Shown here piece by piece: positions 16,128 through 16,730 of a stretch of 64,000 nucleotides of DNA. A program made the position numbers and the translations under genes. Within the stretch, counting starts at the first letter, position 1. Each line of letters begins with the position of its first letter. The stretch is from Escherichia coli (GTDB taxonomy: Bacteria; Pseudomonadota; Gammaproteobacteria; Enterobacterales; Enterobacteriaceae), in NCBI RefSeq assembly GCF_017348835.2, contig NZ_CP071375.1, one strand, 5' to 3'. The notes under the pieces are model-generated. The model saw only the letters and a list, made by a program, of their open reading frames with translations. It had not been told where the DNA came from and did no database searches.

Positions 16128-16203
16128 ACGTCCTGATTCAGACCTCCTTTCAAATGAATAGCCAACTCAAAATTCACACCTATTACCTTCCTCTGCACCT
16201 ACG

Positions 16204-16241
16204 CATTCGTTAAACCATATATGTTTTTGACTTATCCGCTT
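16204..16241 (+). promoter_or_regulatory. ars promoter/ArsR operator remnant (cattcgttaaaccatatatgtttttgacttatccgctt), cut off at 16241 by a deletion
   Basis: Matches the well-known ArsR operator core ATATGTTTTTGACTTATCCGCTT. The sequence after ccgctt jumps into the 3' end of arsB. Confidence 0.6.
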
Positions 16242-16292
16242 TGGTTTGTAACGCTGGCTGCGCTGGCGCTACGTCTCTCTTTCACTTTGTAA
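16242..16292 (+). pseudogene. arsB: 3'-terminal remnant of arsB (last 16 codons ...LWFVTLAALALRLSFTL*). arsR and the rest of arsB are deleted.
   Basis: Hydrophobic in-frame tail ending in TAA 12 nt before the arsC start. No arsR or arsB ORF anywhere between agrB and arsC. Confidence 0.55.
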
Positions 16293-16304
16293 TGAGATAC
16301 TGAT

Positions 16305-16730
16305 ATGAGCAACATTACCATTTATCACAACCCAGCCTGCGGCACATCGCGTAATACGCTGGAGATGATCCGCAACAGCGGTACAGAACCGACCATTATC
16401 CATTATCTGGAAACACCACCAACGCGCGATGAACTGGTAAAACTCATTGCCGATATGGGGATTACCGTACGCGCGCTGCTGCGTAAAAACGTCGAGCCGT
16501 ATGAGGAACTGGGCCTTGCGGAAGATAAATTTACTGACGAGCGGTTAATCGACTTTATGCTTCAGCACCCGATTCTGATTAACCGTCCGATTGTGGTGAC
16601 GCCGCTGGGAACTCGCCTATGCCGCCCCTCGGAAGTGGTGCTGGAAATTCTGCCAGATGCGCAAAAAGGCGCGTTCTCCAAGGAAGATGGCGAGAAAGTG
16701 GTTGATGAAGCGGGTAAGCGGTTGAAATAA
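16305..16730 (+). CDS. arsC: Arsenate reductase ArsC (141 aa, glutaredoxin-coupled)
   Basis: MSNITIYHNPACGTSRNTLEMIR... with catalytic Cys12 in HNPACGTSRN. Confidence 0.95.
   Translation: MSNITIYHNPACGTSRNTLEMIRNSGTEPTIIHYLETPPTRDELVKLIADMGITVRALLRKNVEPYEELGLAEDKFTDERLIDFMLQHPILINRPIVVTPLGTRLCRPSEVVLEILPDAQKGAFSKEDGEKVVDEAGKRLK

Follow-up and report, generated by a model that had tools for sequence, protein, structure and literature searches.

The chromosomal arsRBC operon of Escherichia coli K-12 and BL21, with a promoter (Pars) that is repressed by ArsR, was reportedly described in its intact form by Diorio et al. in 1995 and by Xu, Shi and Rosen in 1996. Stand-alone genes for reductases of the ArsC/Spx fold exist as well, e.g. 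the yfgD and yffB paralogues in E. coli. For phylogroup B2, the passages on this locus in Sutterlin et al. (2018, AAC; PMC5923176) describe a gor-slp interval that holds only arsC. These passages regard arsR and arsB as lost rather than gained, give arsenite MICs of <128 mg/L for isolates without arsRB, state that all isolates retain arsC, and report the B2 gene order also for some isolates of phylogroup E. ST131 shows the same pattern as B2 (PMC9731454). Gene content and MICs are given in the passages of Sutterlin et al., with no mention there of breakpoints or of the consequence for the promoter.

Here we describe such a locus in a window of 64,000 nucleotides, the whole stretch of E. coli chromosome that was analysed. 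Its gene order is prlC-rlmJ-gor-dinQ, IS, agrA/agrB, arsC, yhiS, slp, dctR and chuS (Table 1), and the part of it that was examined shows 100% identity to strains PE164 (O108:H9, from pig) and F2_81. As in the B2 locus described in the passages of PMC5923176, arsC is the sole gene from the gor/dinQ-agr region to yhiS/slp. The deletion junction itself does not differ from the one in the B2 strains UPEC 536 and O25:H4 ST131, and arsC is retained in both. Unlike the B2 allele, however, the window has the junction within a flanking haplotype that is not B2 (across the junction segment, identity to the B2 type, represented by 536, is ~90%), has two agr copies instead of one, and contains an extra IS481-family insertion upstream. 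With the stand-alone ArsC/Spx-fold genes the window shares an ArsC-family gene without an adjacent pump or regulator, but its state is secondary and deletion-made, and the encoded protein is a bona fide operon ArsC (NF007456).

Since gene content and phenotype are already published, the finding is known at that level; mildly new are the base-level structure of the breakpoints and the occurrence of the allele on non-B2 haplotypes, including that of an O108:H9 pig strain. We consider it very probable that the locus represents one old arsRBC deletion allele that was spread by recombination, with arsC kept and likely served by a hybrid promoter, and with the IS as an independent and later addition. 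The similarity of the flanks, the ~90% junction identity to the B2 type and the serotype O108:H9 place the host of the window, as far as sequence comparison tells, outside phylogroup B2. According to one paper, O108 strains form a serotype group mostly belonging to phylogroup E; from this general statement and the chuA linkage, PE164 is probably a phylogroup E strain.

Table 1. Features of the arsC region. Positions refer to the window, except in the last row, where they refer to loci from other E. coli genomes.
Feature	Position	Strand	Basis or remark
gor	12950-14302		ORF and family searches
dinQ	14356-14439	-	
IS481-family insertion sequence, 1,093 bp	14679-15771	+	NF033577, 221 bits; insertion relative to BL21
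IS481-family transposase ORF	14736-15818		no stop inside the element; reads 47 nt into the flank
AgrB antisense sRNA family, agrA-type copy	15815-15898	+	Rfam RF02891, 100.3 bits (gathering score 40)
agrB sRNA gene with intrinsic terminator	16046-16129	+	Rfam RF02891, 108.1 bits; hairpin AAAAAACCGACGCAAAGTCGGTTTTTTT
ArsR-binding sequence	16210-16235	+	12-2-12 imperfect inverted repeat TTAAACCATATA-TG-TTTTTGACTTAT; match to published site
Retained Pars -35 hexamer TTGACT	16227-16232	+	identical to BL21 locus L003, 3300-3305
Deletion junction	16241-16244		last Pars-side base 16241; filler TG 16242-16243; first arsB-side base 16244
arsB 3' remnant	16244-16292	+	one base, codons 415-429 (FVTLAALALRLSFTL), TAA stop
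Candidate extended -10, TGT-AACGCT	16247-16255	+	putative; from arsB codons, 17 nt from the retained -35
arsC, glutaredoxin-dependent arsenate reductase, 141 aa	16305-16730	+	NF007456, 304.9 bits (cut-off 242)
Two-gene module (ArsR/SmtB-family regulator and permease)	L012 3108-4536; L013 3209-4614; L015 3221-4637		

Anatomy of the deletion

As the intact reference we used the locus of BL21 (L003; arsR 3353-3706, arsB 3760-5049, arsC 5062-5487). In blastn, window positions 15772-16241 align with L003 2845-3314 at 97.2% identity (agrAB/Pars region) and positions 16244-16800 with L003 5001-5557 at 96.4% (last 15 arsB codons and arsC). Because this homology spans hundreds of bases, the match to an intact locus is not one of chance motifs. 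Missing relative to BL21 are ~1,686 bp (L003 3315-5000), which comprise the -10 and start site of Pars, arsR and arsB codons 1-414. The parts that remain, i.e. the ArsR site, the -35, the 12-nt spacing between the arsB stop and arsC, and arsC itself, are collinear with the intact K-12/BL21 operon and 96-97% identical to it. A sequence-only reading of the window had proposed that an arsRBC operon lost arsR and all but the end of arsB, and the alignment to intact loci bears this out. Its 23-mer ATATGTTTTTGACTTATCCGCTT at 16219-16241 has an identical counterpart shortly before arsR in BL21 (L003 3292-3314), and its hydrophobic tail peptide is indeed the end of arsB, 12 nt before the arsC ATG as at the intact arsB-arsC junction. 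Operator and tail, which in a different arrangement might have failed to match Pars and arsB, both align to the intact operon. The reading had also seen no arsR or arsB ORF between agrB and arsC; in agreement, tblastn of ArsR and ArsB over the 64 kb returned only ArsB residues ~415-429 (16245-16289).

At base level some details had to be revised. The left breakpoint lies 38 nt upstream of the arsR ATG, i.e. 9 nt into the 17-nt spacer that follows the -35 TTGACT, and a three-way alignment puts the right breakpoint at arsB codon 414. The junction reads CCGCTT-TG-GTTTGTAAC, so that after the 23-mer the window continues with TGGTTTGTAACGCTGG...TTTGTAA, the stop codon being at 16290-16292. The filler TG resembles neither flank, with a filler length of 2-3 nt. 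Of the 16 arsB codons originally counted, only 15 (F415-L429) and one extra base belong to arsB, since the "TGG" is not arsB sequence (CTG in the reference). The alignment with an intact arsRBC locus, proposed earlier as a way to find both breakpoints and any microhomology, located the breakpoints at both ends but revealed no microhomology. Neither microhomology or repeats at the breakpoints nor a templated filler was seen in seven diverse intact alleles, none of which has an arsB reading GCTTTGGTTTGTAAC that could have served as a filler template. The intact allele of WR14-2 has GCTT on both sides, yet the extra TGG is still not generated from it. With a filler of 2-3 nt and no microhomology, "precise" was too loose a word for this deletion. 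The distances from the junction to its neighbours had likewise been underestimated: agrB ends at 16129, 112 nt (not ~75 bp) away, and the IS at 15771, 470 nt (not ~390 bp) away.

The arsC-only arrangement might also be thought ancestral, with arsR-arsB inserted in other lineages. Phylogroup B2 is frequently regarded as having branched off early, which would suit such a history; within the window we found no sequence that supports it. The 46 nt of arsB 3' coding sequence, in frame and with their stop codon, are collinear with intact operons, as are the ArsR-binding site and the Pars -35, and loss instead of gain is also the conclusion in the passages of PMC5923176. We therefore give an ancestral arsC-only state practically no credence.

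Frequency and spread of the deletion allele

Of 5,426 complete E. coli genomes, 1,111 match a junction-spanning query of 206 bp without interruption; in the others the query splits into two places ~1.7 kb apart. A junction query derived from UPEC 536 retrieved the same 1,111 genomes, 1,040 of which share 99% identity or more with the 536 type. The sequence-only reading had treated the deletion as specific to this strain, a view that is not compatible with these counts or with the description for phylogroup B2 in the passages of PMC5923176. In an exact-pattern scan of the GTDB species representatives the 24-nt junction was not found, so that at this resolution nothing points to its occurrence beyond E. 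coli. The deleted arsRB segment is present in 4,320 of the 5,426 complete genomes, and therefore fewer than 1% of the deletion genomes hold a K-12-type arsRB elsewhere. For PE164, a second ars operon had been suggested as something to look for. No second K-12-type arsB was detected on its chromosome, a PE164-specific query yielding four places with as well as without 600 nt of arsB appended; in F2_81 the count stayed at seven with 600 nt of arsB appended to a PE164-specific query. This search addressed operons of the K-12 type on the chromosome, R773-type and Acr3 systems and the 41.7-kb plasmid lying outside it. ArsR and ArsB are thus absent from the 64-kb window and, as regards K-12-type genes, from the PE164 chromosome. 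With arsR and arsB missing, the locus provides neither arsenite sensing nor arsenite efflux, and a sensitivity to arsenite as in B2 E. coli is predicted for the strain. Arsenate reduction without export may, as the sequence-only reading proposed, raise arsenite toxicity; what the literature documents are low arsenite MICs of isolates that have no arsRB.

We compared deletion alleles from 14 genomes: PE164, 536, EC12, O25:H4 18044 (ST131), O2:H1 HM670, FDAARGOS_1292, JA0265, SSGNw2, O145:H28 RM12581, A30, DSM 103246, 2018-05-2CC, 33F4 and 100416. The 17-mer CCGCTTTGGTTTGTAAC at the junction is identical in all 14, and each of them also carries, linked to it, a G>A change (GTAAC) within the arsB stub. 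Outside the junction the alleles are mosaic. The flanks of the window are 96-99% identical to intact alleles of the A and E types versus 88-94% to the B2 deletion allele, and the tail and upstream sequence of the 536 type resemble the intact allele of N96. Moreover, the arsC of O145:H28 differs from that of BL21 at 7 nt and from that of the deletion allele A30 at 32 nt. Such interleaving of deletion-linked arsC haplotypes with those of intact operons points to recombination. Judged from these patterns, homologous recombination has transferred the deletion from one background to another, or else its flanks have undergone repeated conversion.

This mosaic could also be taken as a sign that the same deletion recurs independently at a hotspot, the PE164 allele being separate from the B2 allele, as the window flanks resemble the B2 deletion allele less than they do intact alleles of the A and E types and the arsC haplotypes with the deletion are polyphyletic. 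Recurrence would, however, have to reproduce in 14 of 14 alleles the same junction, including 2-3 nt unlike either flank, together with the linked G>A change, at breakpoints that offer no repeat or microhomology to drive it, and flank recombination is the simpler account of the mosaic. We regard repeated origin as quite improbable. A single ancestral event is by far the simplest explanation, because junction, filler and G>A change are shared by 14 of 14 alleles and no repeat or microhomology is present.

According to our proposal, one event of illegitimate recombination would have removed ~1.69 kb, from 9 nt past the Pars -35 to arsB codon 414, and the resulting allele would then have become fixed in phylogroup B2. 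Homologous recombination would have carried it to other flanking haplotypes, including that of the O108:H9 pig strain PE164, and the loss of ArsR and ArsB would, in line with published work, leave the cell arsenite-sensitive. The occurrence of the junction on several unrelated flanking haplotypes would make it a neat illustration of how homologous recombination can spread a loss-of-function allele. For practical purposes, CCGCTTTGGTTTGTAAC offers a simple PCR or k-mer marker of the deletion allele, and users of arsR/arsB markers or of Pars-based reporters in such strains work with a host that lacks ArsR. Beyond annotation the deletion matters little, being a real but ordinary polymorphism, old and common.

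Promoter remnant and orphan arsC

The ArsR-binding sequence of the E. coli chromosome was published as TTAAGTCATATA TG TTTTTGACTTA (PMC6555750). The site in the window equals it except for GT>AC in the left half-site. This change (TCAT to CCAT) could have meant that an orphan operator was decaying, but we rejected the idea, since the intact operons of O157 (O157:H7) and 1517k share the AC variant. The 23-mer that had been taken for the operator core in fact consists of the right half of the ArsR site, the -35 and 9 nt of the spacer. Because no ArsR is encoded, the site is now an orphan operator.

The left breakpoint falls inside the promoter spacer, and for this reason nothing is left of the native -10 (GACACT), the start site and the leader; Pars is incomplete, with only the ArsR site and the -35 kept. 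The earlier statement that arsC is transcribed from Pars without ArsR thus holds as far as the missing arsR is concerned, but is too simple with regard to the promoter. With the native -10 and start site gone and the strong agrB terminator upstream, arsC needs a new promoter. A candidate is the arsB-derived extended -10 that follows the retained -35 (Table 1). Its hexamer AACGCT agrees with the native GACACT at four of six positions, among them A2 and T6, and a TGn motif is gained. B2 alleles keep the hybrid architecture, with the hexamer AACTCT. In a rough scoring matrix of base frequencies, the hybrid is the best sigma-70-like candidate in 16130-16304 and scores 6.97 versus 7.70 for the native TTGACT-17-GACACT, both values being within background (median 6.19, 90th percentile 8.71). 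A scan of the window with a consensus promoter/terminator scanner gave no matches; this scanner is uninformative here, because the experimentally known Pars of BL21 was missed too. We consider it plausible, on these sequence features, that the hybrid promoter TTGACT-17-TGT-AACGCT drives arsC.

The deletion also creates a 23-codon chimeric ORF (16221-16292, MFLTYPLWFVTLAALALRLSFTL) spanning the fusion between the ArsR site and the arsB stub. This ORF was dismissed, as it overlaps the -35 and has no ribosome-binding site; its start ATG is GTG in the B2 alleles, and it is probably meaningless.

In addition to NF007456, which covers residues 1-141 of 141, the ArsC of the window matches TIGR00014 with 137 bits (cut-off 106). 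Cys12 and the triad Arg60, Arg94 and Arg107, which we take to be the catalytic residues of ArsC, are present in the window and in all 14 deletion alleles. In each of these alleles arsC has 141 codons and is free of stops and frameshifts. Segregating sites number 36 synonymous and 21 non-synonymous in the 14 deletion alleles, and 32 and 10, respectively, in seven intact alleles, a difference that is not significant (Fisher p = 0.19). Against a neutral non-synonymous/synonymous site ratio of 3.1, the deletion alleles deviate with a binomial p = 6e-10; the B2-type deletion alleles alone contribute 5 synonymous and 4 non-synonymous sites (p = 0.04). Pairwise dN/dS ranges from 0.04 to 0.2, with dS up to 0.3. 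Judging from the substitution pattern, arsC is not decaying and is under purifying selection in the deletion alleles, a signal that is not strictly one of post-deletion constraint, because recombination may import constrained sequence from intact operons.

It has to be asked whether the orphan arsC is a silent relic that is no longer transcribed and persists through shortness of time or repair by recombination. The deletion of the native -10, start site and leader, a hybrid promoter score no better than background, a strong agrB terminator that blocks upstream read-through and the evident recombination with intact alleles would all fit such a relic. On the other hand, 14 of 14 alleles are without stops or frameshifts despite synonymous divergence of up to 0.3, non-synonymous changes are strongly under-represented, and -35, 17-nt spacing and four of six native -10 bases are preserved in the hybrid, which also gains TGn; arsC is furthermore retained in all isolates according to the passages of PMC5923176. 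We judge a silent arsC to be rather unlikely. In our preferred reading the intact and selectively constrained arsC would most likely be transcribed constitutively and weakly from the old -35 and the new TGn-AACGCT. Literature searches on whether arsC is expressed in Nissle 1917 or uropathogenic strains yielded nothing of use. A further-reaching and decidedly tentative proposal is that arsB codons 416-418, placed 17 nt from the -35, would constitute a new, ArsR-independent constitutive promoter, that arsC may be selected for a role not involving ArsB, and that the allele could have spread from B2 to O145:H28, O108:H9 and others as loss of ArsRB would benefit host-adapted strains.

Irrespective of the deletion, arsC is unusually polymorphic in E. 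coli. Among the window and loci L002-L021, pairwise dS reaches ~0.3 and nucleotide differences ~8%. This divergence is well above the level typical of core genes, and the haplotypes are not grouped by operon intactness.

Neighbouring genes and the upstream IS481-family element

The number of AgrB-family sRNAs varies between alleles. Two copies (agrA and agrB) are present in the window, and only one in B2-type alleles such as that of UPEC 536 (L002 3977-4118). Apparently, the single copy of the B2-type alleles, which are ~230 bp shorter here, arose via recombination between the two repeats. Downstream of arsC, the yhiS-like ORF (17357-18472, 371 aa) has no NCBIfam match and is a variable, decaying neighbour: the PE164 annotation lists it as a frameshifted pseudogene, its length is 371 aa in O157 but 407 aa in BL21, and B2 strains have a truncated form. 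In some E. coli whose arsRBC is intact, arsC and yhiS are separated by a further two-gene module, made up of an ArsR/SmtB-family regulator on the opposite strand and a permease (Table 1). This module is absent from the window, BL21 and O157.

The proximity of the junction to the IS and agrB had led to the suggestion that these events are linked. Proximity, with the IS end 470 nt from the junction, is the one argument for the idea that the IS481-family element caused or accompanied the deletion, as in IS-mediated adjacent deletion. The element is, however, flanked on both sides by an intact 8-bp target duplication (CATGTCCT, 14671-14678 and 15772-15779) and is hence a simple insertion, and neither endpoint of the deletion (16241/16244) touches the IS end at 15771. 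Among the matches listed, IS and deletion occur together in only four genomes (PE164, F2_81, EC12 and 377323_2f), compared with 1,111 genomes that have the junction, which is thus nearly always without the IS. At the identical site, the element also adjoins an intact arsRBC in IAL7255, Z1323CEC0015 and O103:H2 FWSEC0007. These observations refute the suggested link, and we see next to no chance that the IS was involved in the deletion. In the single-deletion reading, the IS insertion 470 nt upstream would be an independent and later event.

The element itself has a subterminal inverted repeat, ATATTGCAATT. Among the matches listed, it is found at the exact dinQ-agr site in seven complete genomes of unrelated backgrounds. 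Other copies of the element adjoin Hok/Gef toxin genes, with 4-14 nt of identical flank, which suggests that the element targets a specific sequence near type I toxin loci. A LexA-box-like sequence, TACTGTATGATTATCCAGTTA, is located upstream of dinQ at 14630-14650 (minus strand), ~28 nt from the left end of the IS; given this closeness, the insertion may disturb the SOS-regulated promoter region of dinQ.
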